From a bacterium (GTDB lineage Bacteria; Patescibacteriota; Minisyncoccia; Moranbacterales; UBA2206): a DNA stretch of 64,000 nt. The position numbers were made by a program, and so were the translations under genes. Numbering within the stretch: the first letter of the stretch is position 1; each line of letters opens with the position of its first letter. Shown here piece after piece: positions 12,780 to 60,526 of the stretch. The notes under the pieces were generated by a model. The model was not told where the DNA came from and did no database searches. It saw only the letters and a program-made list of their open reading frames with translations. The DNA lies in NCBI GenBank assembly GCA_030654225.1, contig JAURXY010000026.1:10448-74447 (forward strand), given 5' to 3'.

Positions 12780-13835
12780 CTATCCGAAATAATTTTCCAC
12801 CGCGAATTCGAATTGTTTGACGAAGATTTCTTTTAGAAAATAAAGACTATTTTGTTCATAAAAAAGTAGAGTCGCTTTTTTGTAGTCATTTTTATCAACA
12901 TCCCTATAAGATAGTGGGCAATATCCCTCCGCTAATAAAATAGCATTGCCTAAAATTCTAGCAGTTCTTTTGTTTCCATCTTCAAAGGGTTGAATATAGG
13001 AAATTAAGGCGATCGCAGAAAGCGCTTTTAGCAGGGGATGTATATTTTTGGCATTAATAATCGAAAGCACTTCATGCAAAGCTTCTTTTATTTGAAATTG
13101 ATTATCCAGCGGTTTGTAATTAGTTCCAGTTATCCCGACTGATGTTTTTCTGACATTTTTTTCAACTCCAAGGTCGAAGGTAAGTAGCTGGTGCAGGTCT
13201 TCGATTTTAGAAAGAGTTAATTCTTTGAAAATTTTAGGATTCTTAATAATATAGTCCAGAGCTTTTTTATGATTTAGAATCATTTGAGTTTCTGATTTTG
13301 TGTGACCGGAAGCCTCTTGATTTTCTGTTATTAGAATTTCTGTTTCTATTAAGGAATACGTGTTTCCTTCTATTTGAGATGATTTCCAACTTAATTCTAT
13401 AGTTAGTCTTTCAAACTCTTTTTTTAGAATAGTAGGGGAGAGTTTCTTTACTCTTTTCTGATAGTTGTCATTTAGTTTATCAAGATTAGCCAATTCTTCT
13501 TTTGAGAATATTGAGTTATCAAAATTTTTGAAGATATCGAAGTTGAAGTTTTTTTGAGAATTTCTCTTCTCTACAGATTGTTCAAAATATTTCTCGATAT
13601 CATAAAAAGACATCAGGGGATTCTCAATCATTACACCATAAGAAACGCTTCTTCCCCGCCCTGTTTTTTTGATTAGTTTTTTTGTTATTAAAACATCGAG
13701 ATCTCTTATGATTGTGATTCTATTCAAAGCCCCGGTTTTTAGTTCTTGGTATTCCTTAATTTCTCTGGTGCTAGCTTGCCCTTGATTTTGTATGAATTCC
13801 AGGATTGAGTTTTGACGAGTAGTTAATTTTTCCAT
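12780..13835 (-). CDS. Fic/Doc-family protein with N-terminal wHTH; catalytic His replaced by Gln (QPFEDGNKRTAR)
   Basis: Fic core motif present except H->Q; codon is CAA (plus-strand TTG at 12990-12992). Confidence 0.75.
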   Translation of the reverse strand: MEKLTTRQNSILEFIQNQGQASTREIKEYQELKTGALNRITIIRDLDVLITKKLIKKTGRGRSVSYGVMIENPLMSFYDIEKYFEQSVEKRNSQKNFNFDIFKNFDNSIFSKEELANLDKLNDNYQKRVKKLSPTILKKEFERLTIELSWKSSQIEGNTYSLIETEILITENQEASGHTKSETQMILNHKKALDYIIKNPKIFKELTLSKIEDLHQLLTFDLGVEKNVRKTSVGITGTNYKPLDNQFQIKEALHEVLSIINAKNIHPLLKALSAIALISYIQPFEDGNKRTARILGNAILLAEGYCPLSYRDVDKNDYKKATLLFYEQNSLYFLKEIFVKQFEFAVENYFG

Positions 13836-20664: not shown

Positions 20665-21663
20665 ATGAAAAACAAAAAAGAACAAAAAGAAATAATTATT
20701 TATCAGGCTAAGGATGGCGCCATCGAACTGCGTGGTGATTTTAAGCATGAAAATATTTGGGCTTCGCAAAAACAAATCGCTGATATCTTTGGAATTGATA
20801 GAACAGTAGTAACGAAGCACATTAAGAAAATTTTAACAGACAAAGAGCTTGATAAAAAAGTGGTATGTGCAAATTTTGCACAGACCACTAAGCACGGAGC
20901 AATCAAGGGTAAAACTCAAACAAAAGAAGTTGAATTTTATTCTCTCGATATGATTTTGTCTGTGGGGTATCGGACAAGTTCTTTCAAGGCTATTGAATTT
21001 AGAAAATGGGCGAATAAGATTTTGAAAGAGCATTTAATTCAAGGCTACACAATCAACAAAAAACAAATTGCCAAAAATTATGAGGCTTTTATGCAGACAG
21101 TATCTAGTATTCAAAATCTTTTGCCTGAGCATATCACGCTTGATCCAAAACTAGTTTTGGAACTAATCAAGGAATTTGCTAGCACATGGGTAGCGCTGGA
21201 TGCTTATGACAAAGAAACTCTTCGCGCAATTGGCACAACTAAAAAAGCAATCAAATTGTCAGGCAAAGAGCTAGTTGAAGCAATTATTGAGCTTCGAGGC
21301 GAACTTATGAAAAAAGGTGAGGCTTCTGATCTTTTTGCGCGAGAAAAAAGAGCTGGTAGTGTTGAGGGAATAGTGGGAAATGTAATGCAATCATTTGGTG
21401 GCAAAAATCTATATCCTACCGCTGAAGAAAAGGCGACCCATCTTTTGTATTTTATGGTGAAGAATCACCCATTCGACGACGGAAACAAACGCTCTGGTGC
21501 GTTTGCTTTTGTGTGGTTCTTGCGAAAAACAAAAATCCAAGGCGCTAAAAACATCAACCCAAGCGCGCTTACCGCCCTCACACTTTTGATTGCGGAAAGT
21601 AATCCAAAAAAGATGAATCAAATGACAGCGCTTGTCACGACACTTCTGTCAGTGAAAAAATAA
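20665..21663 (+). CDS. RhuM-family N-terminal domain fused to Fic/Doc domain (HPFDDGNKRSGA)
   Basis: RhuM-like N-terminal 120 aa; Doc-type motif HxFxDGNKR. Confidence 0.8.
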   Translation: MKNKKEQKEIIIYQAKDGAIELRGDFKHENIWASQKQIADIFGIDRTVVTKHIKKILTDKELDKKVVCANFAQTTKHGAIKGKTQTKEVEFYSLDMILSVGYRTSSFKAIEFRKWANKILKEHLIQGYTINKKQIAKNYEAFMQTVSSIQNLLPEHITLDPKLVLELIKEFASTWVALDAYDKETLRAIGTTKKAIKLSGKELVEAIIELRGELMKKGEASDLFAREKRAGSVEGIVGNVMQSFGGKNLYPTAEEKATHLLYFMVKNHPFDDGNKRSGAFAFVWFLRKTKIQGAKNINPSALTALTLLIAESNPKKMNQMTALVTTLLSVKK

Positions 21664-21971: not shown

Positions 21972-22943
21972 ATGAAAAATAAATTAACTTTTATTGAAGA
22001 AGAAAATAAACTAATTCCGAATAGAATAATTGAAGAGCTAGGAATTAAGAATAATCAACAAATATATTTTGAAAAGGAATCAGAATCATTAAAAGTTTTT
22101 GAAATTGTTAATAAATTGCTCGGACCTCGTGGGTTTGAGGAATTTTCCGCCGGCCAGTTTAAAGCAATAGCGGGAGGATCATTAAACTGCTCAAATAAAA
22201 TTAAAAACTATGCAACTGGGAAAGGGGCTATCTCTAAGGGTTTTACTTATATCGCAGACATTATCAAATATTGCCAGATTTGTATTGATAATTCAGTCTT
22301 GATTCCTTTGGAAAGTATAATAGAAGAATTCGAGTGGGCGAAAAAAGCTATAAATGAGGGATATATTACATTACATTCGAATGGGAAGATGAGATATGAT
22401 ATTGAAGCAATTATGGATATAACAAAAGGTTTATTGGTGGAAGTTGCATTTAAAATTGATAGTGAGAGAAAAAATATAGAAATCGAATTGAATAGAGATT
22501 TTTTTACTGGGACAAGTAATACTGATGAGGGTCAAGATATCAAGCGGATAAAATTTACTGGTGATGTTTTTATATCTCCTCGGATAAAAGTACAAATTAA
22601 GGATACTCAATATTTTATACTTATTTCAGAAAATGAATTTAATGGGCCAAGAAAAGCAGAACTTTTTATTTCATATAAAGTACATTGGAAAAAAGCCAAT
22701 ACGGGGCAAAGATTTTTTAGAAGTCTTGGTGGAAGGGGCGAGCATATATTTTCCGATTTTCCAGTTCTTAAGGGAATACGAGCCGAAAGGAGAGGATGGG
22801 CGTTAAGAGAAGATTTTAAGGAATTAAAAAAGTTTAATAAATATAAAGGAAAATCTTTTAATAATGATAATATGTATGTTTATTGGGATGATTTGCGCGA
22901 TTTGAATGATCTTTTTTCAAAATTAAAAAATCTTATTGCTTAA
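21972..22943 (+). CDS. hypothetical protein; candidate restriction endonuclease/effector partner of the LexA-MTase
   Basis: no known motif; 3-prime end overlaps the convergent MTase gene by 11 nt. Confidence 0.45.
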   Translation: MKNKLTFIEEENKLIPNRIIEELGIKNNQQIYFEKESESLKVFEIVNKLLGPRGFEEFSAGQFKAIAGGSLNCSNKIKNYATGKGAISKGFTYIADIIKYCQICIDNSVLIPLESIIEEFEWAKKAINEGYITLHSNGKMRYDIEAIMDITKGLLVEVAFKIDSERKNIEIELNRDFFTGTSNTDEGQDIKRIKFTGDVFISPRIKVQIKDTQYFILISENEFNGPRKAELFISYKVHWKKANTGQRFFRSLGGRGEHIFSDFPVLKGIRAERRGWALREDFKELKKFNKYKGKSFNNDNMYVYWDDLRDLNDLFSKLKNLIA

Positions 22944-24507
22944 TCGCTTTCATAATTTGTTTTGCTACGGCCGTAACCACAGGGACACTCACAGAATTTC
23001 CAGCTTGCTTGTATAGTGAAGAGTCAGCCAAGTTTTTTGGCAGGATAAATGTTTTTGGAAATCCTTGTAGCCTAAAACATTCAAGAGGAGTCAGTTTTCT
23101 GATTCCTTTTTTGTCTTTTATAATTGGAACATTATGTCCACCCGTTCCCATATTAGCAGTGAGAGTTGGACACACGCCTTTTTTGTTTTCCCTCACATAT
23201 TGTCTTCTCCATTGATAAACTTTTCCTCCTTCATTTACAAAATCCTTAAGTTTTTCAAAGAGTGGTTTGTCGTTATAATAATATTTTTTGTCCACATTTT
23301 TTTCCAAAAGGTCAGTGACTCTTAGTTTCAATTCTTGTGGCTCTGGAAATTCAAATTTATCTGAATAATCTTTATTCTTAAATCCGACTATATAAATTCT
23401 TTCTCGGTTTTGTGGAACATTACCATACTCCATAGTGTTTAAAACTTTAGTTTTCACATGATAGCCCAAATCTTCTAGTGTCTGGATGATTATACTAAAA
23501 GTTTTCCCGTTGTCATGACCTTTGAGATTTTTTACATTTTCCAAAAGAAATCCTTCGGGCTTTCTAGCTTCCAAAATTCTTGCAACATCAAAAAACAAAT
23601 TTCCCCGATCTTTTTCATCATTAAATCCTTTGCGATATCCTGCGATTGAAAATGCTTGGCAAGGAAAACCGCCCAAGAGAAAATCAAATTTTGGTAAATC
23701 ATCAATTTCAATTTTTCTCATATCTTCCACGATAAGTTTTGATTTTTTGAAATTCAAATCATAAGTGTTCTTGCAATATTTATCAAAATCATTTGCAAAA
23801 ACTGTTTCAAATCCTGCATTTTCAAAACCTAATCTTATACCTCCAACTCCGGCAAATAAATCTAAGGTTCTAAATAATTTTTGTTTTGAGTCGCTAGGGG
23901 TATTCTCTAAATTTCTTTTTATCTCAATAACCACCCCTCTAATCTCAACTTCTTTCCTATATATCGGCAACATTGTTTGATTGGCTGGTTGAAGTCGGAA
24001 TCTATTTTTCTCTCGGTATATTTTTTTCAAAGTGGCTTCATTGTCATCAATTATCGCGACCACTGTCTGGCCATTTTCTGCCGAAGATTGTTTTTTTATA
24101 ACCACAATGTCACCATCGAAAATTCCTTCATCAATCATGCTCGTACCCCTAACTTCGAGAGCATAATATTGTTCATCTTTTTTTATATTACCCGAAGCAA
24201 TCATCACGCTTTCTCCTATTGTTTCTATGGCTTCGATTGGCTGACCGGCAACTATTACTCCAACTAATGGAATTTTTATAAGGCTATATGGATTTTTCTT
24301 TTTCAATTCGATCCCTCTAGCTGAACTTCCATTTCTTTCGATGAATTCTTTTTTCTCCAATGCTTCTAAGTGTTGGTGAATAGTTGAAGGAGCGGAGAGT
24401 TTGAAATGTTTTCTAATTTCTTCGATAGTAGGGGATAGCCTTTTTTTATTTATATAAGATTTGATAAAATCTAGTATTTGTTTTTGTTTTTTTGTGAGAG
24501 TGGACAT
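22933..24507 (-). CDS. fusion of full LexA-like repressor (wHTH + S24 peptidase) and DNA (cytosine-5)-methyltransferase
   Basis: N-term wHTH; VAG-Q cleavage site; S24 Ser (GTSM) and Lys (ATLKK) 38 aa apart; then MTase motifs I DLFAGVGG, IV GFPCQAFS, VI ENV, VIII QNRERIYIVG, X GNSVSVPV. Confidence 0.85.
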   Translation of the reverse strand: MSTLTKKQKQILDFIKSYINKKRLSPTIEEIRKHFKLSAPSTIHQHLEALEKKEFIERNGSSARGIELKKKNPYSLIKIPLVGVIVAGQPIEAIETIGESVMIASGNIKKDEQYYALEVRGTSMIDEGIFDGDIVVIKKQSSAENGQTVVAIIDDNEATLKKIYREKNRFRLQPANQTMLPIYRKEVEIRGVVIEIKRNLENTPSDSKQKLFRTLDLFAGVGGIRLGFENAGFETVFANDFDKYCKNTYDLNFKKSKLIVEDMRKIEIDDLPKFDFLLGGFPCQAFSIAGYRKGFNDEKDRGNLFFDVARILEARKPEGFLLENVKNLKGHDNGKTFSIIIQTLEDLGYHVKTKVLNTMEYGNVPQNRERIYIVGFKNKDYSDKFEFPEPQELKLRVTDLLEKNVDKKYYYNDKPLFEKLKDFVNEGGKVYQWRRQYVRENKKGVCPTLTANMGTGGHNVPIIKDKKGIRKLTPLECFRLQGFPKTFILPKNLADSSLYKQAGNSVSVPVVTAVAKQIMKAIKQ

Positions 24508-44336: not shown

Positions 44337-44342
44337 AAAATT

Positions 44343-44462
44343 GTCATTCCCGCGAAGGCGGGAATCTAGTGTAGAAGCTAAATAAAAAAGAATAGATTAT
44401 ATAAAAAGATTGGTTATTTTAAAATAAACTTAAGACTAGATCCCCGCATCCGCGGGGATGAC
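44343..44462. mobile_element. MITE-like element A1 (28-bp TIRs GTCATTCCCGCGAAGGCGGGAATCTAGT / ACTAGATCCCCGCATCCGCGGGGATGAC)
   Basis: imperfect terminal inverted repeats, each itself a hairpin; AT-rich core; second copy at 54342-54435. Confidence 0.65.
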
Positions 44463-44541
44463 AGAGAAAAAAGAAATAAAAAAAACCGGAGATATGTCAG
44501 ATGTTACTAGACACATGCCCCGGTTCGGCCAATTGCAAGCC

Positions 44542-49948: not shown

Positions 49949-50398
49949 ATGATTAAGAAAACAATACAGAATATAATTTTAGAGTTTGAACCTGAGGCTA
50001 AGAATATTTTACCGGCGCTGAAAAAAATTAGCGCCGTTTTTGGTTATGTGAGCGAAGAAGATGTCAAAATAATGGCTGAATATTTTGGTGTGTCGGAAAG
50101 TAAGATTTTTGAAACCGCTAGTTTTTATGATGAAATTAAAACTGAAAAACAGCCGGAGATTCTAATTCAAATCTGCAATTCAGCTAACTGCACAGTAAAC
50201 AATTCTTTTTCAATAATTTCTGAGGTTGAAAATTTTCTAAAAATAAAAGCAGGAAGCTCGGCCAGTTCGAAATTTAAGCTGGAAGAAATTAGCTGTCTTG
50301 GGCGTTGCGCTGACGGTCCGGTGATGGTGGTAAATGGAAAAATATTTGAGCGAGTGACGAAGAGTTCATTACATGGGATATTGGGAGAGTATTTATAA
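49949..50398 (+). CDS. NuoE/HoxE-like [2Fe-2S] subunit
   Basis: Cx4C ... CxxxC (ICNSANC ... CLGRCADGP). Confidence 0.8.
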   Translation: MIKKTIQNIILEFEPEAKNILPALKKISAVFGYVSEEDVKIMAEYFGVSESKIFETASFYDEIKTEKQPEILIQICNSANCTVNNSFSIISEVENFLKIKAGSSASSKFKLEEISCLGRCADGPVMVVNGKIFERVTKSSLHGILGEYL

Positions 50399-50419
50399 AA
50401 TTACAAAATTAAAAATTCT

Positions 50420-51643
50420 GTGAAGGATATAAAAATTATAACTGAATACTGGGGCAAAATAAATCCTTTGAAAATAGAGGACTATATTAATGTTGGAGGA
50501 TACACGGCCTTGGAAAAATTTGTTTCGAAAATGAATCCAGAAAAGGCAATTGAGGAGATTCAAAAGTCTGGTCTTTGTGGGCGCGGTGGTGCGGGTTTTC
50601 CAATGGGAGATAAATTGGGAATGGTAGCAAAACAAACTGGAGAGAAATATTTCATCTGCAACCTTGAAGAATCAGAACCGGGGACATATAAGGATAGATT
50701 GGTTGTGGATAATAATCCGCATTTGCTTTTGGAAGGAATTATAATTTCTGCACTTTCGATTGGTGCTCAAAAAGCCTATATCTACATCAATGGGAATTAT
50801 GAAAAGCAAAAAGAAATTTTGGAGATTGTAATTTTGCAAGCGAAAGAAAAAAAATATTGGGGAGAAAATATTTTGGGTTCGAAATTTAGTTTAGAAATAG
50901 AAATTTTTTCTGGCGCCGGTGCATATATTTGTGGAGAAGAAACGGCGCTCATAAATTCTATTGAGGGTAATCGCGGAGAGCCAAAAATTCGTCCACCATT
51001 TCCAACTTCGGCTGGACTTTTCGGTTGTCCAACCGCCGTGAGTAATGCAGAAACAATTTCTAATATTCCCTGGATAATTTCTAATGGTGGGAAGAAGTAT
51101 TCAATTATTGGCTCAAAAAATTCCCCTGGGACAAAGCTTTTTCTTTTGAATGGTGCTGTAGCAAAGCCAGGGTGCTATGAAGCACCAACCGGAATAACAG
51201 TTAAAAAATTAATTGACGATTACGCTGGCGGAATAAAAAGAGGTAAAGAATTTTGGTTTGCGCAAATTGGTGGCGCTTGTGGAAAATTACTTTTAGAAAA
51301 AGAACTAAAAGCTAAAATGGAATTTGGCAAAGAATGTGAATGTTCGCTAGGCTCCGGATCAATTTTAGTGGTGGATAAAAGTGTCAATATTCATGACCTC
51401 CTTATTTCTTGGACAGATTTTTTTCGTCGAGAATCTTGTGGAAAATGTGTACCTTGTCGAGAAGGAACTTTTCGGCTGTGGGAAATAGCTAAAAGATTTC
51501 GTGACGGTGAAATTTCCGATCGCGACAAAGAAGCGATTCAAGATATTTTATGGACACTGGACAATACGACTTTTTGCCCATTGGGAAAATTCGCCGGAAC
51601 CGCGTTTCGGGATGCAGTGGGAAAAGGTATAGTGAAATTTTAA
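50420..51643 (+). CDS. NuoF/HoxF-like NAD(H)/FMN-binding subunit
   Basis: GRGGAGFPMG; 4Fe-4S ESCGKCVPCREG. Confidence 0.85.
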   Translation: MKDIKIITEYWGKINPLKIEDYINVGGYTALEKFVSKMNPEKAIEEIQKSGLCGRGGAGFPMGDKLGMVAKQTGEKYFICNLEESEPGTYKDRLVVDNNPHLLLEGIIISALSIGAQKAYIYINGNYEKQKEILEIVILQAKEKKYWGENILGSKFSLEIEIFSGAGAYICGEETALINSIEGNRGEPKIRPPFPTSAGLFGCPTAVSNAETISNIPWIISNGGKKYSIIGSKNSPGTKLFLLNGAVAKPGCYEAPTGITVKKLIDDYAGGIKRGKEFWFAQIGGACGKLLLEKELKAKMEFGKECECSLGSGSILVVDKSVNIHDLLISWTDFFRRESCGKCVPCREGTFRLWEIAKRFRDGEISDRDKEAIQDILWTLDNTTFCPLGKFAGTAFRDAVGKGIVKF

Positions 51644-51803
51644 TTTTTACAGAATTAACTCGAAGGCTGATTTTGTAGCAAAAAAATTCCCTCAATCGAC
51701 GGCGTCCAATGGAATTTTTTTAACAAAAGCAACCTTCTCAAACAGGAATTCTATAAAAATTAAAAATTTCACTATTAAAAAATAAAAGATAAGGAGTGAA
51801 AAT

Positions 51804-52838
51804 ATGAATATAAAAATAAACGGAAAAATTTACGAGGCAAAAGCAGGTGAAGCAATATTTGCGGTTTGCAAAAAAAATGGGATAAAAGTTCCGACTTTGT
51901 GTTCGACGAAAAAATTTCAAGAAGGGGTATGTCGAATTTGTGTGGTTGAGATAGGCGGAAGATTGGTGACTTCTTGCAATACAAAAGTTTGCGAAGGGAT
52001 GGAAATTGTAACTGAAAGTGAAAAGATTGAAAAAGCACGGCGGATTAATCTGGAACTTTTGTGGGCGGATCACGCTGGGAAATGCGCGACTTGCAAAAAA
52101 AATCAAATGTGCGAATTGCAAAATTTAGCCTTGGAATATAAGATTGAAAATTTTCATTTCATTCCGAGAAAGGGTGAAATAACAGGCGCGGAAGAATTGG
52201 ATTTGATCAAAGATAATTGGTCTCGCGTGGTGGTAGAAAATGAAAATCCCTGCATATCCAGAAATAGCGAGCTTTGTATTGAATGTCGCAGATGTATCAA
52301 TATTTGCCCAGAGAAAAAATTTGGCTTTAACTATCGTGGTAATTCTGTGGTGGTGGGAACTCCTTATGAAAAAGTTTTGGATTGCAGTTTTTGTGGAAAA
52401 TGTGTAGAGGCGTGTCCTACGGGAGCGCTCACGGATCAAAATAATTATTTGAAAATCGTGGAAGATCTGGATAATCTTGAAAAATTTTCAGTGGCTGTTT
52501 TAGATCTCGGAATAGAAGAAAAAATATTAAAGGCGATGGGAAAAATAAGCCCAGAGAAGGATTTGAATAAATTGCTAATCAATTTAGGTTTTGAGAAGAT
52601 TGTAAAATTAGGAAAAGAAAATTTGAAAATTGAATTTGTGAAAAATATTAAAGATGAATATTCCAGAACCAAAAAAATAAATCAGCAAGATATTGTGGTA
52701 TTTTTCATTTCTTCAAGGATTTATGAGAAAGCTAAGCGAGATAAAAATTTGGATTATATTCTAAGTGAAAGGGAAGTGGCGAGATTGGTTAGAGATAAGG
52801 AGAAAATAAAGATAGGAAAAATTCACCCTATTAAATAA
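51804..52838 (+). CDS. NuoG-N-terminal/HoxU-like [2Fe-2S]+[4Fe-4S] subunit with about 110-aa Cys-free C-terminal extension
   Basis: 2Fe-2S Cys; CIECRRC, CSFCGKC clusters; SD GGAG. Confidence 0.75.
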   Translation: MNIKINGKIYEAKAGEAIFAVCKKNGIKVPTLCSTKKFQEGVCRICVVEIGGRLVTSCNTKVCEGMEIVTESEKIEKARRINLELLWADHAGKCATCKKNQMCELQNLALEYKIENFHFIPRKGEITGAEELDLIKDNWSRVVVENENPCISRNSELCIECRRCINICPEKKFGFNYRGNSVVVGTPYEKVLDCSFCGKCVEACPTGALTDQNNYLKIVEDLDNLEKFSVAVLDLGIEEKILKAMGKISPEKDLNKLLINLGFEKIVKLGKENLKIEFVKNIKDEYSRTKKINQQDIVVFFISSRIYEKAKRDKNLDYILSEREVARLVRDKEKIKIGKIHPIK

Positions 52839-52863
52839 ATTTTAAATTTTTAGCCAAATTTAC

Positions 52864-53085
52864 ATGCAGTATGTTTATGTCTTGAAAAGTAAAAAAGATA
52901 ATAAAAATTATGTAGGTTATACTAAAAATTTAAAATTAAGATTTGAGCAACATAACAAAGGACTGGTGCTTTCTACTAAAAATAGAATACCACTAAGTCT
53001 TATATATTATGAAGCTTGCCTAAATCAACAAGATGCTACTAAAAGAGAAAAGTATCTAAAACTATTTACGGCAAGCGATATATAA
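52864..53085 (+). CDS. GIY-YIG nuclease family small protein (YhbQ-like)
   Basis: YVYVLKS ... YVGYT ... RFEQH ... KRE motifs. Confidence 0.7.
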   Translation: MQYVYVLKSKKDNKNYVGYTKNLKLRFEQHNKGLVLSTKNRIPLSLIYYEACLNQQDATKREKYLKLFTASDI

Positions 53086-53117
53086 AAAGTAGGCTCAAAT
53101 CTTATTTAATAGGGTAA

Positions 53118-53324
53118 ATGTGTCTCGCAATTCCAGCAAAAATTATAAAAATCAACGGTCAACTGGCGATAGTTGATTTTCAGGGTGCAAAAAAAGAAAT
53201 AAATATCAGCATTGTGGATGTTAAGGTTGGTGATTATGTGATGGTACACGCTGGTTTTGCGATTGAGAAGATGGAGAAAGATAATGTGAAAGAAATTAAC
53301 GCCTACTTAAAAAATGGAATCTAA
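53118..53324 (+). CDS. hypC: hydrogenase maturation factor HypC
   Basis: MCLAIP N-terminus. Confidence 0.85.
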   Translation: MCLAIPAKIIKINGQLAIVDFQGAKKEINISIVDVKVGDYVMVHAGFAIEKMEKDNVKEINAYLKNGI

Positions 53325-54354
53325 GAAAATCATAAAAAGTATTTGGGAGAAAGCACAAAAAATTAATCGATCACTTCGATTTATGGAACTTTGTGGAACG
53401 CATTCAGAAAGTATTGCTAAACATGGGATAAAAAATATTTTACCAAAAAATATAAAACTCATTACCGGACCTGGCTGTCCGGTTTGCGTCACTGATCAAA
53501 GTGAAATTGATATTGTCACGGGACTAGCGCTCGCTGGAATTCCAATTGCTTGCTATGGAGACGCCACTAACATTCCTGGAAGTTTAGGTAGCTTGGAAAA
53601 TGCTCGGCAAAATGGTGCGCAAGTTTTCATTGTTTATGATGTGGCAGAAGCCATTGAAATTTCCAAAAAAATTTCCAATTTGGTTTTTTGGGGAATTGGT
53701 TTTGAAACAACCACTTCGATGACAGCATGGGGGATTAAAAACAATCTTACAGTTTTTTCTTCCCACAAACTTTTTCCGCCAGCTATGGAAGCGTTGATGG
53801 CAAACAAAAAAATTAGAGTTGATGGCTTTATCAATCCGGGTCATGTGAGTGCTATTATCGGAACGAAAGTTTATGAAAAATTCCAAATACCACAAGTGAT
53901 TGCTGGCTTTGGCGCAGAGGACGTTCTTCTGGCGATTGAAATGCTTTTGGATCAAATAATTTCTGGAGAAAAAAAAGTGGAAAATGAATATGCGAGACTG
54001 GTGAAAAAGGAAGGCAATATAAAAGCGAGAAAATTAATTTCAGAAGTTTTTGAAATCAGAAATGCTTCTTGGCGAGGTTTGGGAGAAATCAAAAATTCCG
54101 GATTGAAAATTCGAAAAAAATATCAGCATCTTGACGCTGAATTTATCCATCGAGATTTGATTGCGAAAATAAAAAAAGAAATTAAACCAAGAAAAAGTAT
54201 CTGTCGTTGTGGAGAAGTTTTGCAAGGATTGATTGAATCAAAGCAATGTAAATTATTTGGAAAATCTTGCACGCCTGACAATCCTCAAGGTGCTTGCATG
54301 GTTTCGAGGGAAGGGAGTTGTAATATTGAGTACAGATTTATGTCATTCCCGTGA
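53314..54354 (+). CDS. hypD: hydrogenase maturation factor HypD
   Basis: CGTHS ... GPGCPVC motifs; last 4 codons and stop lie inside MITE TIR. Confidence 0.85.
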   Translation: MESKKIIKSIWEKAQKINRSLRFMELCGTHSESIAKHGIKNILPKNIKLITGPGCPVCVTDQSEIDIVTGLALAGIPIACYGDATNIPGSLGSLENARQNGAQVFIVYDVAEAIEISKKISNLVFWGIGFETTTSMTAWGIKNNLTVFSSHKLFPPAMEALMANKKIRVDGFINPGHVSAIIGTKVYEKFQIPQVIAGFGAEDVLLAIEMLLDQIISGEKKVENEYARLVKKEGNIKARKLISEVFEIRNASWRGLGEIKNSGLKIRKKYQHLDAEFIHRDLIAKIKKEIKPRKSICRCGEVLQGLIESKQCKLFGKSCTPDNPQGACMVSREGSCNIEYRFMSFP

Positions 54355-54435
54355 AAACGGGAATCTAGTCATAAAAATGTTTTTATCGCGATAAATTTAA
54401 TTTCTACACTAGATCCCCGCATTCGCGAGGATGAC
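54342..54435. mobile_element. MITE-like element A2 (TIRs GTCATTCCCGTGAAAACGGGAATCTAGT / ACTAGATCCCCGCATTCGCGAGGATGAC)
   Basis: same architecture as 44343-44462; lies between hypD and hypE, overlapping the hypD stop. Confidence 0.65.
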
Positions 54436-54442
54436 AAACTTT

Positions 54443-55450
54443 ATGAATAAAATAATTGAATTAGAAATGGGCGGAGGAGGAAAAAAATCGGAAGAACTTA
54501 TTGGAAACATAAGGAAAATTTTGAATGTTCGTGGAAAATGGAAAAACACTAAGGATGATGGGGCGGTTTTTGACTTGAGTAGAGACGCAAAATTTTGCGT
54601 CTCTACGGGGGGTAATAAGTTGGTGTTTACCACCGATGCTTTTATTGTTGACCCACTGTTTTTTCCGGGAGGGGATATTGGAAAAATTGCGATTTGCGGA
54701 ACGTTAAATGATCTTTCGGTTATGGGCGCTAAGCCGATTGGAATTTCACTCAGTATTGTAATCGAAGAAGGATTTTTGCAAAACGATTTGGAAAAAATAA
54801 TTCAGTCTATAAATAAAATTTCGAAAGTTACAGGCGTTCCGATTGTGACGGGGGACACAAAGGTGACAGAAAAAGGCAAGATAGATAAAATTGAAATTAC
54901 CACTTCGGGAGTAGGGCTCGCTTCAAAAATAATTTCTAATGATGGCGCAAAAGTGGGGGATGATATAATCGTTTCTGGCGATCTTGGTGAGCACGCAGTA
55001 GCGCTTTTGGCCAAGAGATTTAACTATCAAACAAAAATAAAAAGCGATTGTCAACCGCTCATTGCCGAAATTCAAAGTGTAGCTAAATATCTTACTTCTT
55101 GCAAGGATCCAACGCGTGGCGGACTGTCCGCTGTGCTAAATGAAATGGCGGAAAAATCCAAAACTAAATTTGTTTTAGATGAAAAAAATTTACCATTTAA
55201 AAAAGAAACTGTGGCAATTTCAGAACTTCTTGGCATTGATTTTTTTTCTTTTCCATCAGAAGGAAGGTTTGTGGCGACAGTGGCGAGAAAAAATTCCAAG
55301 AGAGTTGTTGAAATTTTGAAAAAATATAATAAATCTGCTAGAATAATTGGAGAAGTGCAAAGGGGCAAAGAAGTTTGGCTGAAAACCAAAATTGGATCTG
55401 TCAAAAAAATTGAAGTGCCAAGAGGAAAATTAATTCCACGGATTTGCTAA
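54443..55450 (+). CDS. hypE: hydrogenase maturation factor HypE
   Basis: DPLFFPGGDIGKIAICGTLNDL; contains in-frame REP-like palindrome. Confidence 0.85.
   Translation: MNKIIELEMGGGGKKSEELIGNIRKILNVRGKWKNTKDDGAVFDLSRDAKFCVSTGGNKLVFTTDAFIVDPLFFPGGDIGKIAICGTLNDLSVMGAKPIGISLSIVIEEGFLQNDLEKIIQSINKISKVTGVPIVTGDTKVTEKGKIDKIEITTSGVGLASKIISNDGAKVGDDIIVSGDLGEHAVALLAKRFNYQTKIKSDCQPLIAEIQSVAKYLTSCKDPTRGGLSAVLNEMAEKSKTKFVLDEKNLPFKKETVAISELLGIDFFSFPSEGRFVATVARKNSKRVVEILKKYNKSARIIGEVQRGKEVWLKTKIGSVKKIEVPRGKLIPRIC
54579..54606. repeat. REP-like 28-bp palindrome copy 3, in-frame inside hypE (encodes RDAKFCVST)
   Basis: exact copy of 29806-29833. Confidence 0.9.
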
Positions 55451-55502
55451 GATAGTTGTTCTTTAAAAATTTAACAAACATATTTTGCCACAACATAAAA
55501 AG

Positions 55503-55531
55503 TGTCTTTGATAATCTCAAAGATTTTTTTT
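55503..55531 (+). terminator. rho-independent terminator after hypE
   Basis: TCTTTGA-TAATC-TCAAAGA + T8. Confidence 0.7.
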
Positions 55532-56009
55532 GTGCTGTGGCAAAATTGAAAATAAACAATATGACAATAAATTTAATTTGAGAGGAAGTTGGATTATTAT
55601 GAAAATGATTACGGGAATTACTATGAATCAAACCCACACATTCTTAAGTGCTCTTGGGACTGGTGCAGATTGGGTTTATTTAGAAAAAAAATTCAGTTTA
55701 CAATGTATTTCTGAAAGCATAGAGAAAAACCCAAAAGTTGCAGGGAGTTTATTTACTGAATTTGTGTTAAGAAAAGAAATAAAGCAGGAAAAACAAAAAA
55801 ATAAGGAAAAAGTTTTTTCAAGTAGTGAATCCATAATATTTTCGAATAAAATATTGAGATTGATCGCTGAGAATATTCAATGGGAAAGAATTGATTTTAA
55901 TAGGGATCAAATCCAATACAGGATTATTCGTAATACTGTTGGGTCTGGTAAGGCATTTACCGAATTTTTGATAAGCCTTATGACCAACCCTGATTTAGAA
56001 TTAGTTTAA
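55530..56009 (+). CDS. hypothetical protein
   Basis: ORF only; true start may be at the internal Met near 55602. Confidence 0.35.
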   Translation: MCCGKIENKQYDNKFNLRGSWIIMKMITGITMNQTHTFLSALGTGADWVYLEKKFSLQCISESIEKNPKVAGSLFTEFVLRKEIKQEKQKNKEKVFSSSESIIFSNKILRLIAENIQWERIDFNRDQIQYRIIRNTVGSGKAFTEFLISLMTNPDLELV

Positions 56010-56123
56010 TTCAAAATCAGCCAGTTATTTTTATTTTTTCAACGGAAGTTGGCAAACTCGCCACAACGCTTTCCGGATTGGGCGAAAACAATCCGGAGCC
56101 TCTACGAAATCGCATGGGGCTTT

Positions 56124-57437
56124 TTATTTTCCCAAAAGATAATAAACGATTTGCCCAAAAGAAAGTCCGGCGTCGCCACGGGGTATATTTTTATTGGCAT
56201 AAGCTCCTTTAGAAATAAGATACTCGGAAATTATTTTATTATTGGCAATGCCGCCAGCGATAAAAATATTGTCATGAGCAAATGCAGGTTCAGGTATCTT
56301 GCCTGAACATTTTATTTCTGGAAAAATTTTATTTAAATTGCTAAATTTAAGTTTATCAGAACTTTGCGGTTTAATCGGGACGATTGAACCTGCATTATTA
56401 TAGCATTTTAGTTTTATTATTTTATACAAGCCATTGACTATATAAAGTTGAGCAGTGGCGGCAAGACGATGCTTATCTTTTTTATGTAAGTATTTAATTA
56501 CGTAATTAAATAAATAAGTAGTATCTAAAATATATTCATCTTCCGAAATTGTTATTTTTGGTTTTAAATCAGAATAAGGTTTAGCTGAATTTTTTTCTAG
56601 TAAATCAATGGGTTCATGCTTGTATTTTCGGGCATTCCCACAAAAACCTAAAAGTAAAGAAACAGCATCCAAAACTCTTCCAGCGCTAGAAGTTTCGAGG
56701 CAATTGAAATTTTGTTGAAGCTGATTATATATAAGTTCAAATTCGTTTTTGGTGTAGAATTTTTTGACGAAATTATAAATATTTTTTTTGTGTTGTATCT
56801 CGCCCTTACCCTCTCCTGTCGCGAGTACGCGACATCCTCTCCCAAAGGGAGAGGAGGAATCTGAAAAAAGTTTATATAAAACTCCAATGAGCATTCTGGC
56901 TGGCTCTCGTACAGCCAAATCCCCACCAACCATAACCTGATTTTCCAAATGCCCAATTCGTTTTACGCTTTCTACTTTATTCTTTCTACTTTCTACTTGA
57001 AAGATTTCTCCGCCCCAAATTTTTTCATCTACTCCAAAACCAGTACCATCTATAGCGATTCCATAAAAAGTAGAAGGTAGTAAGTAGGAAGTATTATGCA
57101 AAATTTTGTCTCCAATAGAAGAAAATATGTGAGCGAGGTGATGTTGAATAAAAAGGTGTTTCACTTTATATTTTTTGGCGAGTTTCTCTCCCCAAATAGT
57201 GGTTTTATATAGCGGATGAAGGTCAGTGAGAATTATTTGCGGTTTAATTTTTTGTTTTTTCAAATATTGCAAAACTTCTTTTTGATACCTTTCCCAATTT
57301 TCTTCTTCCAATAAATCCCCAAAATCATCCGAAAAAAATATTTTTCCATCACGAAAAACCGAAAAATTCCCAGCCGATTCAGCGCCGAGAGCTAAAATGG
57401 ATATATTTCTTTTGTATCCAAGGGAAATTGTTTGCAT
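56124..57437 (-). CDS. hypF: HypF C-terminal (Kae1/TsaD-like carbamoyltransferase) domain protein; lacks acylphosphatase, Zn-finger and YrdC domains
   Basis: LALGAESAGNFSV, TDLHP, QHHLAHI, IAIDGTGFGVDEKIWGGE; start trimmed to MQTISLGYK. Confidence 0.75.
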   Translation of the reverse strand: MQTISLGYKRNISILALGAESAGNFSVFRDGKIFFSDDFGDLLEEENWERYQKEVLQYLKKQKIKPQIILTDLHPLYKTTIWGEKLAKKYKVKHLFIQHHLAHIFSSIGDKILHNTSYLLPSTFYGIAIDGTGFGVDEKIWGGEIFQVESRKNKVESVKRIGHLENQVMVGGDLAVREPARMLIGVLYKLFSDSSSPFGRGCRVLATGEGKGEIQHKKNIYNFVKKFYTKNEFELIYNQLQQNFNCLETSSAGRVLDAVSLLLGFCGNARKYKHEPIDLLEKNSAKPYSDLKPKITISEDEYILDTTYLFNYVIKYLHKKDKHRLAATAQLYIVNGLYKIIKLKCYNNAGSIVPIKPQSSDKLKFSNLNKIFPEIKCSGKIPEPAFAHDNIFIAGGIANNKIISEYLISKGAYANKNIPRGDAGLSFGQIVYYLLGK

Positions 57438-57498: not shown

Positions 57499-58458
57499 AT
57501 GAATATATTTTCTGTATACAATAACCCAATCCCTTCTATCGCTATAGTAGCAATCGCTATTTTGGGCTATCTATTATTTAGATTTTCAAGAAATAAATCA
57601 GGCAAAATTTTCACGGCCACACCTATCATAAATAGTTTTTCAAAAGACATTACTGATTTAGCTAGGAAAAACCAACTTGATCCAGTCATTGGTCGAGAAA
57701 AAGAAATAAACCATCTCATTATGGTTTTGAGTCGCAGGACTAAAAACAATGCTGTGCTCATCGGGGATGCTGGTGTTGGGAAAACTGCGATCGTAGAAGG
57801 TTTGGCGCATAATGTTTCGCAGAAAAATGTTCCTGCAAGTCTTTTTGGCAAAAGAGTTTTGATGCTTGATCTCAACGCTCTTTTAGCTGGTACGAAATAT
57901 CGGGGCGAGTTCGAAGAAAGAGTAAGGAAGCTCACTGATGAAATATCTAACTCAAAAAGAAAAATAATTCTTTTTATTGATGAAATACATAATCTTATTC
58001 AAGCCGAAAGTTCAGGGGAGTCAGTTTCAGTAGGGGATATTTTCAAACCGGCAATGGCTAGGGGAGAACTGCAAATAGTTGGCGCCACAACCAAGGAAGA
58101 ATATGATCAATATTTTCATACGGACTTAGCTTTCAAAAGAAGAATGCAACCAATTTTTGTGAAAGAGCCGAGCAAAAAAGATACTTTTGAAATTCTTAAG
58201 GGTGTAAAATCAAAATATGAATCTTTTCATAATGTCAGAATTTCCGAAAAAGTCATCAGGGCTTGCATAGAACAATCAGAAAAAATGTTGCCTGGACGAT
58301 CCTTTCCGGATAAGGCGATAGATTTAATGGATGAAGCATCTAGCAAAGCTAGAATGGGATGTATCAACAATAAATCGAAAAAATGTAAAATTATTCCAGA
58401 AGTGAAAATAACAGATGTAGCTCAAATTGCCAAAGAATATCGAGAGGTAAAAAGATAG
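57499..58458 (+). CDS. ClpA/ClpB-type AAA+ NBD1-only protein with N-terminal TM helix
   Basis: DPVIGREKEINHL, Walker A GDAGVGKTAI, Walker B ILFIDEIH; no second NBD. Confidence 0.65.
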   Translation: MNIFSVYNNPIPSIAIVAIAILGYLLFRFSRNKSGKIFTATPIINSFSKDITDLARKNQLDPVIGREKEINHLIMVLSRRTKNNAVLIGDAGVGKTAIVEGLAHNVSQKNVPASLFGKRVLMLDLNALLAGTKYRGEFEERVRKLTDEISNSKRKIILFIDEIHNLIQAESSGESVSVGDIFKPAMARGELQIVGATTKEEYDQYFHTDLAFKRRMQPIFVKEPSKKDTFEILKGVKSKYESFHNVRISEKVIRACIEQSEKMLPGRSFPDKAIDLMDEASSKARMGCINNKSKKCKIIPEVKITDVAQIAKEYREVKR

Positions 58459-58535: not shown

Positions 58536-59078
58536 ATGAAGAAAACAAAAACAAAAACAAAAACAAAAACAAAAATAAAAATTGGGACTGCGGTAGCGAT
58601 TGCTATTGCCGTGATTAGCGTGGGTGGAATAATGGCAGCGGGAGCGATGAGAATAGCTAAAAACAAAACGAATAATTCAAAATTAGAAAATTGTAAAAAT
58701 TATTGGTGGCACAATAGTCAAAGTACCGAATGTTTACATGGTAAATTCTGCGGAAAATATCAATATGAAGGGTTGAAAACTTTTGAAGAAAAAAAGGAAT
58801 GTGAAACTTCTCTGGGAAATAAATGTGGTTTATGCAAACAAATTGCCTCTCCGCCAGCTGATTGGTGCAAAGATGGTCAAATAGTATCAGGAGGAAAAGA
58901 CAATTGTGGATGCGCAAAAGCGCCAACATGCAAATGTGGTTCATGCCCGCAACTTTCTCCGCTACCAATTGATTGGTGCAAAAATGGAAAGATAGTCCCA
59001 GGAGAAAAAAATGAATGTGGATGCTATTCAGCACCAAAATGTATTATTGCTACAACCGCAAATTCAATTTCAAATTAA
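58536..59078 (+). CDS. secreted/membrane-anchored Cys-rich protein with (KT)n N-terminus and tandem about 30-aa Cys repeats
   Basis: (AAAACA)6 at 58546-58581; repeats PPADWCKDGQIV ... / PLPIDWCKNGKIV ... Confidence 0.5.
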   Translation: MKKTKTKTKTKTKIKIGTAVAIAIAVISVGGIMAAGAMRIAKNKTNNSKLENCKNYWWHNSQSTECLHGKFCGKYQYEGLKTFEEKKECETSLGNKCGLCKQIASPPADWCKDGQIVSGGKDNCGCAKAPTCKCGSCPQLSPLPIDWCKNGKIVPGEKNECGCYSAPKCIIATTANSISN

Positions 59079-59176
59079 TAACGCGTTTAAACTACTATTC
59101 AAAATCCTCCACAATGGGGGATTTTTGATTTGGCTAAAATATGCTATTATATAGGCATAAATAGTAAGATATTATT

Positions 59177-60526
59177 ATGGAAAAAACAATAAATCCCAAG
59201 ATTTTTAAGGCGTATGATATTCGGGGGCTCTATCCAGATGAGATTAATAGTGAAACTGCCTATAGCATCGGTCGAACTTTGGTGACGTTTACTAAGGCCA
59301 AAAAAATAGCTGTAGGGTGCGATATGCGAGTATCTTCACCGGAAATGGAAGAGGCGTTATTAAGAGGCATAACTGATCAAGGTGCGGACGTAGTGAAGAT
59401 TGGATTAGCTTCGACGCCAATGACCTATTTTTCCTCTTGGAAATTGGAAGTAGATGTAGCAGTTATTATCACGGCTTCACATAATCCCGCGCAGTATAAT
59501 GGGATGAAGTTTTGCTGGAAAGGTGCTGTGCCAATTGGAGAGGGAAGCGGAATGGAGGAAATAAAAGAACTAGCTGTTAAGGGTGAATTTATTGACGCCG
59601 AAAACAAAGGAAAAATTGAAGAAAATTTTGAAATAGGGAATCAATATATTGATTATGTGGCGGGATTTTTTAACAAAAATTTTGCCAAGAAAAAAATTGT
59701 GGTTGATTTTGGTAATGGTATGGCATCAGTGGAAAAAGGAGTGTTTGAAAAATTTCCGGAAAATTTGGAAGTTGATTATTTATTCGAAGAGCTGGATGGA
59801 AATTTTCCCAATCATGAGGCCAATCCATTGAAAGTTGAAACATTGGAAGCTTTGCAAAAAACAGTTTTGGAGAAAAATGCAGATTTAGGAATTTCCTATG
59901 ATGGCGACGCAGACCGAGTAGGTTTTGTCGACGAAAAAGGCGAGGCAGTGCCGATGGATTATCTGATTGCCCTTTTAGCCAAGGAAGTTCTCAAAAAAAA
60001 TCCTGGAGGTCTTATTCTTATGGATCTTCGTAGTTCTAATGCAGTCAAAGAAGTAATTGAAGAAGCGGGAGGAAAAGTTAATCGTTGTCGAGTGGGGCAT
60101 TCTTTGATCAAAAAACAAATGCGCGCAGAGGGCGCAATTTTTGCTGGTGAACTTTCGGGGCATTATTTTTTCGAAGCTAATTCCAAGGCGGAGATGGCCA
60201 CATTGGCAGTTTTGATGTTGCTAAATCTAATGAACGAAACCGGTCAAAAAATGTCGCAACTTGTAGCTGATCTTAAACGATATTTTCACTCCGGAGAGAT
60301 AAATTCCGAAGTGGCGGATAAGAATGCGGTAATGGAAAAACTCAAAGAAAAATATGCGAATGGAAAATTAGATACATTAGACGGAATTAGAATCGATTTT
60401 CCTGATTGGTGGTTCAGCGTTCGAGCCTCAAACACCGAACCAGTTCTTCGACTTAATCTTGAAGCTAAGACAAAAGAATTGATGGAGGAGAAAAGGGAGG
60501 AAGTTTTGGGACTTGTTCGTGGGTAA
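59177..60526 (+). CDS. phosphoglucomutase/phosphomannomutase
   Basis: active-site TASHNP; Mg loop DGDADR. Confidence 0.9.
   Translation: MEKTINPKIFKAYDIRGLYPDEINSETAYSIGRTLVTFTKAKKIAVGCDMRVSSPEMEEALLRGITDQGADVVKIGLASTPMTYFSSWKLEVDVAVIITASHNPAQYNGMKFCWKGAVPIGEGSGMEEIKELAVKGEFIDAENKGKIEENFEIGNQYIDYVAGFFNKNFAKKKIVVDFGNGMASVEKGVFEKFPENLEVDYLFEELDGNFPNHEANPLKVETLEALQKTVLEKNADLGISYDGDADRVGFVDEKGEAVPMDYLIALLAKEVLKKNPGGLILMDLRSSNAVKEVIEEAGGKVNRCRVGHSLIKKQMRAEGAIFAGELSGHYFFEANSKAEMATLAVLMLLNLMNETGQKMSQLVADLKRYFHSGEINSEVADKNAVMEKLKEKYANGKLDTLDGIRIDFPDWWFSVRASNTEPVLRLNLEAKTKELMEEKREEVLGLVRG

Follow-up and report, generated by a model that had tools for sequence, protein, structure and literature searches.

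A NuoE/NuoF/HydA-like and Hyp gene locus of Candidatus Moranbacteria as the probable electron-input and maturation half of a cytoplasmic [NiFe] hydrogenase

In the [NiFe] hydrogenase NiFe-HydABCSL, the HydA subunit has lost its H-cluster motifs and has kept the cluster chain of its F-domain, and HoxU has been described as a truncated homologue of HydA (PMC8880783). The clusters B2-B5 have been described as invariant in the bifurcating Bfu enzymes and as absent from their non-bifurcating homologues (PMC9304861, PMC7311640). The hydrogenases of Candidatus Moranbacteria have been classed as group 3b and likened to sulfhydrogenase (PMC5037454, PMC10811913). Here, we analyze a locus on a 64,000-nucleotide stretch of contig JAURXY010000026.1 (referred to as the window), which belongs to Candidatus Moranbacteria (Parcubacteria) and has a low G+C content of ~36%. 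The locus encodes NuoE-, NuoF-, and HydA-like subunits together with the maturation proteins HypC, HypD, HypE, and a short HypF. We consider this region to be probably the electron-input and maturation half of a Moranbacteria cytoplasmic [NiFe]-hydrogenase gene set, the catalytic block of which most likely resides elsewhere in the genome. A limited literature search found no published description of a module consisting of NuoE, NuoF, and a vestigial HydA.

Family assignment relied on Pfam and NCBIfam models, with bit scores compared to the curated cut-offs. All genes listed in an initial annotation of the window were recovered where it had placed them:

49949-50398, plus strand: NuoE/HydC-like thioredoxin-like [2Fe-2S] subunit, 149 amino acids (aa); Pfam PF01257, 114.9 bits
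50420-51643, plus strand: NuoF/HydB-like subunit that binds NADH and FMN and has a single [4Fe-4S] site, 407 aa; Pfam Complex1_51K, SLBB, and NADH_4Fe-4S
51804-52838, plus strand: vestigial HydA (HydA*; HoxU/NuoG-N-like), 344 aa; NCBIfam FeFe_hydrog_A6, 178 bits
52864-53085, plus strand: GIY-YIG protein between hydA* and hypC, 73 aa; Pfam PF01541
53118-53324, plus strand: hypC, 68 aa, with N-terminal MC motif; TIGR00074, 70.5 bits (cut-off 48)
53314-54354, plus strand: hypD, 346 aa; TIGR00075, 399.8 bits (cut-off 192.8)
54341-54436, no strand: element resembling a miniature inverted-repeat transposable element (MITE), with terminal inverted repeats, at the hypD/hypE junction
54431-55450, plus strand: hypE, 339 aa, with C-terminal PRIC motif; TIGR02124, 343 bits (cut-off 251.6)
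56124-57437, minus strand: short hypF, 437 aa, convergent, with the Kae1-like carbamoyltransferase domain only; Pfam HypF_C and HypF_C_2 only

HypC, HypD, and HypE each scored above the curated cut-off and carry the catalytic motifs, which identifies them as genuine members of their families. Cys2 of HypC is intact, and alignments showed the same for the CGTH, GPGCPVC, GFETT, and PGHVS motifs and the C-terminal Fe-S cysteine cluster of HypD as well as for the C-terminal PRIC motif of HypE. The locus is flanked by the glycolysis genes TIM and FBA, to which GAPDH is added in relatives. The backbone of the window consists of a ribosomal-protein/translation block with SecY, adenylate kinase, and Map, followed by glycolysis genes.

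Searches by tblastn with Moranbacteria proteins recovered not even fragments of a small or large hydrogenase subunit, Dfx, HypA, or GAPDH from the 64 kb (all E > 0.2). A Pfam scan of the larger remaining open reading frames (ORFs) of the window, excluding smaller ORFs and those of the ribosomal-protein/translation block (~25-43 kb), also revealed no hydrogenase subunits, HypA, Dfx, GAPDH, or HypB-type GTPase, in agreement with the initial annotation, which had noted that catalytic subunits, HypA, and HypB are missing from the window. Rfam and tRNA scans returned nothing relevant in the region.

A scan of a genome collection with a Moranbacteria large subunit yielded 69 loci from as many species, for which the gene order was mapped (related loci of other Moranbacteria are denoted by L-numbers). 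The full order, found in many related species such as L003 and L005, is TIM-FBA-NuoE-NuoF-HydA*-HypC-HypD-HypE-short HypF (convergent)-(ClpB-like fragment)-small subunit-(M10 peptidase)-large subunit (419 aa)-Dfx-HypA-GAPDH, with Dfx being optional. The small and large subunit genes of the relatives thus come after hypF and not after the HoxU-like gene, and the suggestion that the GIY-YIG gene sits where hoxYH would be expected is not supported. Next to hypF of the window and of its nearest relatives, there is no small/large-subunit block. Instead, the window, L001, and L076 share a layout in which hypF is followed by a ClpB-like gene or another ORF and then by PGM and TrpRS, and no small or large subunit or HypA was found within 6 kb downstream of hypF in L001. 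The HydA* sequence of L076 is the one named by NCBI in RIFOXYA12_FULL_35_19, a genome for which both halves of the gene set are on record: A2271_00280 is the locus tag of HydA*, and A2271_04480 that of the large subunit, which is encoded on contig MFSE01000021.1, where a small subunit-large subunit-Dfx-HypA-GAPDH block lies amid unrelated genes. No hoxYH pair was found just outside the window, and the equivalent genes are located elsewhere in the genome of this relative. A CG23_combo metagenome-assembled genome (MAG) was considered as a second example of a split and rejected, because the locus-tag prefixes differ (COX29, COX30) and a shared genome was not established.

For 40 of the 69 species, at least 9 kb of sequence upstream of the large subunit were available. 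This stretch contained both the diaphorase genes and hypDEF in 10 species, the diaphorase only in four (14 of 40 with a diaphorase altogether), hypDEF only in nine, and neither in 17. The cluster is therefore modular and frequently split. Most likely, a rearrangement in the lineage of the window separated the small/large-subunit block, which would now reside elsewhere in the genome. Small and large subunit genes are thus expected in the source genome, an expectation based on the selection acting on the locus and on the genome of the relative.

A true orphan locus would offer a different explanation for the missing block. In this case, the structural genes would have been lost, and the diaphorase and Hyp genes would either have been kept for another job, for instance as a redox module of the NADH:ferredoxin or another type or in Fe(CN)2CO/thiocyanate chemistry directed at a different target, or not yet have decayed. 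This explanation draws on the lack of a small or large subunit, HypA, or any remnant of them in the 64 kb, on the fact that none could be assigned to the source MAG, and on their like absence downstream of hypF in L001. However, all seven genes were found to be under purifying selection. With L001, a relative 88% identical to the window, as reference (dS ~0.3-0.7), the ratios of nonsynonymous to synonymous substitution rates (dN/dS) were 0.078 for nuoE, 0.113 for nuoF, 0.066 for hydA*, 0.127 for hypC, 0.116 for hypD, 0.081 for hypE, and 0.254 for hypF, compared to 0.057-0.075 for the housekeeping genes map, GT2, galT-like, TIM, FBA, and PGM. This selection has been maintained over a dS of ~0.5 in two lineages with the break in common, and the relative with the same layout possesses the small subunit-large subunit-Dfx-HypA-GAPDH block elsewhere. 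Moreover, the window also lacks GAPDH, which travels with the block. As a glycolytic fermenter would be expected to need GAPDH, this argues for relocation rather than loss. HypCDEF are not known to serve any client other than hydrogenases. An orphan locus is thus unlikely, and we prefer a catalytic block encoded elsewhere. Of the two possibilities left side by side in the initial annotation, catalytic genes at another place or a decaying or repurposed locus, the former is supported by the split in RIFOXYA12_FULL_35_19, whereas ongoing erosion is contradicted by intact frames and catalytic motifs throughout and by dN/dS values at or near the housekeeping level.

The palindrome and MITE insertions that had been cited in support of erosion are real. 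Yet they are located in frame or at gene ends, and the MITE family is present in intact loci too. The MITE (~96 bp; terminal inverted repeats TGTCATTCCCGCGAAGGCGGGAATCTAGT) extends into both genes, forming the final 14 nt of hypD and the initial 6 nt of hypE, and a second copy is found at 44342-44463, with 0 copies expected by chance. It occupies the hypD/hypE junction in two lineages, represented by the window and L076, and is absent there in the closest relative L001. Members of the family occur in many Moranbacteria, including L015, L023, and L076, and sit inside intact hydrogenase loci of other species; given this spread, the element was rejected as a fingerprint tying a large-subunit contig to the source genome. 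Furthermore, hypE contains a perfect, in-frame 28-nt palindrome (54579-54606) and hypF a GC-rich palindromic in-frame insertion of 24 codons (~56790-56866), and alignments revealed different in-frame insertions in the same hyp genes of other lineages. The GIY-YIG gene, which is absent from L001 and flanked by a 28-nt inverted repeat, has copies at other positions in loci L024, L027, L052, and L059. It is a passenger insertion specific to the window, and together with the MITE and the palindromes it is harmless.

The third protein of the presumed diaphorase, HydA*, had been taken for a HoxU with an extension. Its C-terminal stump (residues ~210-344; the last ~135 residues) is indeed Cys-free, with residue 204 being the last cysteine, but the assignment to HoxU could not be upheld. 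Among the NCBIfam models, FeFe_hydrog_A6 ranked first (178 bits over the N-terminal 265 model positions), followed by HoxU (NF005745; 124.7 bits, cut-off 333) and NuoG (114.2 bits, under the cut-off of 470). The F-domain comprises a [2Fe-2S], a His-ligated [4Fe-4S], and two ferredoxin-type [4Fe-4S] sites, the ligands of which (C33/C43/C46/C58, H90/C94/C97/C103, C158/C161/C164/C168, and C194/C197/C200/C204) do not vary among 63 sequences. The [FeFe] H-cluster motifs L1 (TSCCPxW), L2 (MPCxxKxxE), and L3 (ExMxCxxGCxxGGGxP) were not found with their cysteines in HydA*. According to an alignment of 14 sequences, the short forms lost L1 through a deletion of 61-75 residues, the L2 cysteine by replacement, and L3 through C-terminal truncation. 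The 344-aa protein has an identical counterpart among the MAG proteins at NCBI, and all of its close homologues stem from Candidatus Moranbacteria/Parcubacteria. Forms of ~340-350 aa were found across Moranbacteria down to ~55% identity, and the next relatives comprise 466-484 aa and have an Fe_hyd_lg_C domain. Relatives of 467 aa reached 309 bits with the FeFe A6 model, and one long-form HydA aligned to 8a6t_A (HydA of a HydABC complex) including the SHCPSF, SPCVAKK, and CPGGCVNGGGQ motifs.

An AlphaFold model of HydA* was used only for family-level Foldseek ranking and for the confidence of the C-terminal domain, as the Fe-S region was modelled with low confidence (mean predicted local distance difference test score, pLDDT, 65.8). 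Residues ~211-332 form a compact alpha/beta domain (pLDDT 74-90). The top Foldseek hits were [FeFe] HydA chains (E = 7e-19, alignments of ~400 columns); NiFe-HydA 7t30_A (E ~1e-10, 223 columns only) and complex I NuoG homologues (~1e-9) ranked lower. To judge from the sequence alignments and the fold ranking, the C-terminal part of HydA* is a remnant of the H-cluster domain. Because of the strong purifying selection on its gene, we regard HydA* as a functional connector subunit and not as the product of a pseudogene.

Long HydA forms (466-484 aa) are encoded in L005/L021 (10001-11404) and also in L023, L026, L030, and L031. They retain all four [4Fe-4S]H/bridging cysteines of the H-cluster, have the proton-relay cysteine replaced by histidine (SHCPSF), and are ~100 residues shorter than normal HydA. 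Their genes adjoin those of Hyp ([NiFe]) maturases and of a NiFe small/large-subunit pair, and the flanks showed neither HydE nor HydF nor HydG. It is conceivable, though on balance we would not expect it, that Moranbacteria hold a graded series leading from a non-bifurcating HydABC [FeFe] hydrogenase to the diaphorase of a [NiFe] enzyme, with the long HydA, the 340-350-aa stump, and the loss of the module as its stages, all beside the same 3b-like pair and Hyp maturases. If so, these organisms would provide a living record of the swap of a catalytic module and of the origin of HoxU/NuoG-type connectors from hydrogenases, with the shrinking H-cluster domain representing natural intermediates between [FeFe] HydA and HoxU-type connectors. 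The long-form species may then possess a complex with two different H2-active or cluster-bearing ends.

The NuoE-like protein scored 99.9 bits with nuoE_fam (cut-off 142.4) and 70.1 bits with the HoxE model NF005747 (cut-off 224), both values being below threshold. The NuoF-like protein reached 436.2 bits with nuoF_fam, under the cut-off of 558.65, and 337 bits in the comparison with 7t2r_B. No NuoB/C/D/H-N genes were found in the window or in the related loci. By these scores and the gene content, the trio is not the N-module (NuoEFG) of complex I.

The catalytic subunits of the relatives indicate which hydrogenase may be served. The large subunit scored 232 bits with the NCBIfam models of ShyA/HydA of 3b sulfhydrogenases (equivalog cut-offs 700-880) and the small, delta-like subunit 151 bits (equivalog cut-off 460). 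Compared with structures in the PDB, the large subunit was closest to the sulfhydrogenase 9e1j (215 bits), followed by 7t2r_D (164) and the group 3d enzyme 5xf9 (130). Sulfhydrogenase beta or gamma (FeS, FAD/NAD(P)) subunits were not found in the related loci examined, and the window contains none of the four sulfhydrogenase subunits; NuoE/NuoF/HydA*, where present, represent the sole candidate NAD(H) module. These data support a hydrogenase that is probably 3b-like and not of the 3d/Hox type.

The initial annotation had likened the trio to HoxEFU. A canonical HoxEFU diaphorase, as it occurs in bidirectional hydrogenases of group 3d, would agree with the arrangement of the genes (E-F-U), with their sizes, and with the cluster-binding motifs, and the HoxU and HoxE models do match. 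However, both remained below their cut-offs and were outscored by other families, HoxE (70 bits) by NuoE (100 bits) and HoxU (125 bits) by FeFe A6 (178 bits). In addition, the U-like protein bears the H-domain remnant, the F subunit has no N-terminal extension, and the partner subunits in relatives score best with sulfhydrogenase (232 and 215 bits versus 130 bits for 5xf9). A canonical HoxEFU is thus highly improbable. What can be retained from the initial assignment, and is supported by our data, is that the NuoE-like protein, the NuoF-like protein, and HydA* constitute a Hox-like NAD(H) diaphorase module for a [NiFe] hydrogenase, with a partner that is probably 3b-like.

Such a module could also belong to an electron-bifurcating or -confurcating enzyme of the Bfu type like NiFe-HydABCSL, which would use NADH and ferredoxin and had been raised in the initial annotation as well. 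A HydA without H-cluster and HydB- and HydC-like subunits are encoded with a NiFe small/large-subunit pair in L003, L005, L015, L018, and other loci (the window holds the A, B, and C components only), and Moranbacteria have been proposed to possess a 3b hydrogenase capable of bifurcation (PMC10811913). Against such an enzyme speaks the 407-aa NuoF-like protein, which has the FMN/NADH core and one [4Fe-4S] site only. Pfam detected no extra ferredoxin domains and no N-terminal extension, and the PDB alignments spanned only the core of the 584-630-aa HydB/HoxF-type chains. The N-terminal [2Fe-2S] and C-terminal ferredoxin domains that hold clusters B2-B5 are thus missing, and by the published Bfu criterion (PMC9304861, PMC7311640) the module is therefore a non-bifurcating, NADH-dependent one. 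We consider a Bfu-type enzyme very unlikely.

Finally, the trio might be an independent NADH dehydrogenase module and only a chance neighbour of the hyp genes, with the hydrogenase being fed by another partner. Many Moranbacteria have hyp, small, and large subunit genes without an adjacent diaphorase, and the modules appear and disappear independently of each other. However, whenever the diaphorase is present it is found at the same locus, its surroundings contain no conserved gene for another acceptor, and the small/large-subunit blocks contain no other electron-transfer subunit. In L016, L018, L029, and L073, a small HypC-like gene or nothing was detected between the module and the small/large pair. 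Of all explanations considered, we give a chance neighbourhood the least credence and favor coupling of the diaphorase to the [NiFe] hydrogenase.

HypF of the window deviates from the canonical enzyme. It matched TIGR00143 at positions 387-684 of 741 only (194.8 bits, cut-off 466.1), and an alignment showed its HHxAH, DGTGFG, and GDAGLSFGQ motifs to be intact. As the acylphosphatase domain, the two zinc fingers, and the YrdC-like domain are absent, it is not a canonical HypF. In the latter, the YrdC-like domain forms carbamoyl-adenylate. An ORF at 55530-56009 (plus strand) in the gap between hypE and hypF was considered as the missing HypF half and rejected, as it has no family match and is poorly conserved. 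It shares 38% identity with an ORF at the same position in L001/L002, and unrelated ORFs are found there in other species. A scan of 1.84 billion representative proteins identified dozens of distinct clusters of Kae1-only HypF (340-480 aa) beside full-length forms of 700-800 aa. The initial annotation was thus correct in recognizing a HypF with the Kae1-like domain only, yet this is no local reduction but the norm in Moranbacteria and part of a widespread class. A comparable case exists in C. necator, which also has a full-length HypF copy; in contrast, no full-length HypF was seen in the related Moranbacteria loci. C. necator HypF1 likewise consists of one of the three canonical HypF parts and is encoded within a hyp operon, and a need for carbamoyl-adenylate instead of carbamoyl phosphate plus ATP has been suggested for this truncated protein (PMC9100943). 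A lineage that apparently relies on a Kae1-only HypF offers a test case for the formation of the cyanide ligands without a YrdC-like domain.

Based on these results, the NuoE-like protein, the NuoF-like protein, and HydA* would form a non-bifurcating NAD(H) diaphorase derived from a trimeric HydABC [FeFe] hydrogenase, in which the H-cluster domain of the ancestral HydA was reduced to a structural stump. Electrons would pass from NADH via FMN and the [4Fe-4S] cluster of the NuoF-like subunit to the [2Fe-2S]/[4Fe-4S] chain of HydA*, and from there via the clusters of the small subunit to the Ni-Fe site of the 3b-like large subunit. In this way, glycolytic NADH could be re-oxidized with the formation of H2, or the reverse reaction could take place. 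HypC, HypD, HypE, and the Kae1-only HypF would assemble the Fe(CN)2CO moiety of the cofactor. Recurrent adjacency of the genes suggests a physical coupling of the diaphorase to the small/large pair, and either direction of catalysis would be compatible with this scheme.

Several observations weigh against this assignment. In 26 of the 40 species with sufficient upstream sequence no diaphorase is adjacent, and some of them run from TIM-FBA straight to the hyp, small, and large subunit genes; the coupling is therefore not obligatory. Constraint on hypF is somewhat relaxed, as seen from its dN/dS of 0.254. No protein labelled "[bacterium]" (MAG range MDO9231446-MDO9231524) was among the best 120 matches listed in two large-subunit searches, the second of which was seeded with the large subunit of a relative sharing the layout of the window. 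Likewise, none of the 69 loci from the genome collection could be assigned to the source MAG, and an exact-protein contig look-up with HydA* and HypD of the window returned no record. Finally, the source of carbamoyl-adenylate for a HypF without YrdC-like domain is a puzzle, as it is for C. necator HypF1 (PMC9100943).

Some further features of the Moranbacteria loci concern the catalytic block and its surroundings. In many species, a gene for a secreted or membrane-type M10 (matrixin-like) metallopeptidase lies between the small- and large-subunit genes (e.g., L003, 17760-18713). The large subunit of the relatives ends exactly at DPCISCAVH, and a C-terminal processing protease should therefore be unneeded. 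HypA of Moranbacteria (~90 aa; L003, 20479-20751; L041, 11800-12081) retains the N-terminal MHD and has no cysteines, so that it lacks the CxxC pairs with which canonical HypA binds zinc. HypB was not seen in any locus. Small, mobile-looking genes were found between the small- and large-subunit genes in L041 (9556-9957, a 133-aa ORF) and L024 (9714-9914, a GIY-YIG gene whose product is 56% identical to that of the window), and the intergenic sites of the cluster appear to be favored landing spots.

Downstream of hypF, the window encodes a ClpB/ClpA NBD1-like protein of 319 aa (57499-58458, plus strand) with an N-terminal hydrophobic segment and a single AAA+ domain with lid. Its gene is conserved to a very high degree, with a dN/dS of 0.032, and lies beside hypF in several Moranbacteria; the protein is 88% identical in L003. 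It is followed by a Cys-rich protein of 180 aa (58536-59078, plus strand) with a KT-repeat N-terminus, a transmembrane segment, and an internal 110-nt tandem duplication (58821-59041). In L003, a 314-aa protein that matches its N-terminus is encoded at this position. The synteny with relatives breaks at ~59078-59177, directly after this gene. Elsewhere in the window, a 524-aa ORF (22933-24507, minus strand) shows an unusual combination of LexA DNA-binding and S24 peptidase domains fused to a C-5 cytosine DNA methyltransferase, and two Fic/DOC-domain proteins are encoded at 12780-13835 (minus strand) and 20665-21663 (plus strand), one of which is a fusion with a RhuM-like domain.

For the annotation of ultra-small bacteria, our results imply that loss of the hydrogenase should not be concluded from a hyp/diaphorase locus in which the catalytic genes are missing. 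An NADH module derived from HydABC predicts an NADH-linked, ferredoxin-independent H2 metabolism encoded near glycolysis genes.

Four known systems can be compared with the locus. In NiFe-HydABCSL of Acetomicrobium mobile (7T2R/7T30), HydC-, HydB-, and HydA-like subunits likewise feed a [NiFe] small/large pair (PMC8880783). The window differs in that its flavoprotein has none of the additional Fe-S domains that bifurcation requires and HydA* comprises 344 aa, compared to 692 aa in HydA of NiFe-HydABCSL, with a Cys-free C-terminal part and no A5 cluster. Moreover, the small/large pair of Moranbacteria is 3b-like, and in the lineage of the window the genes are distributed over two loci. The group A6 [FeFe] hydrogenases, the best-scoring family for HydA*, also have a short flavoprotein subunit without extra clusters, and their published chemistry interconverts NADH and H2 without ferredoxin. 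In contrast to group A6, the H-domain in the window is vestigial and ligand-free, catalysis would have to come from a separate [NiFe] pair, and the maturases are Hyp proteins and not HydEFG. HoxEFU(YH) of group 3d (5XF9) has the same layout of an NAD(H)/FMN subunit, a 2Fe-2S subunit, a multi-cluster connector, and small and large subunits, whereas the connector in the window retains part of the H-domain and the large subunit of the relatives is 3b-like. With respect to group 3b, the large and small subunits of the relatives are closest to alpha and delta of the sulfhydrogenase (SHI of Pyrococcus furiosus), but the related loci have no beta and gamma subunits of the HydB/HydG type, and the NAD(H) module is NuoE/NuoF/HydA* where present. 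By analogy with these enzymes, the Moranbacteria system may work like a soluble hydrogenase of the Hox or NiFe-HydABCSL type, equipped with a non-bifurcating diaphorase of HydABC origin.

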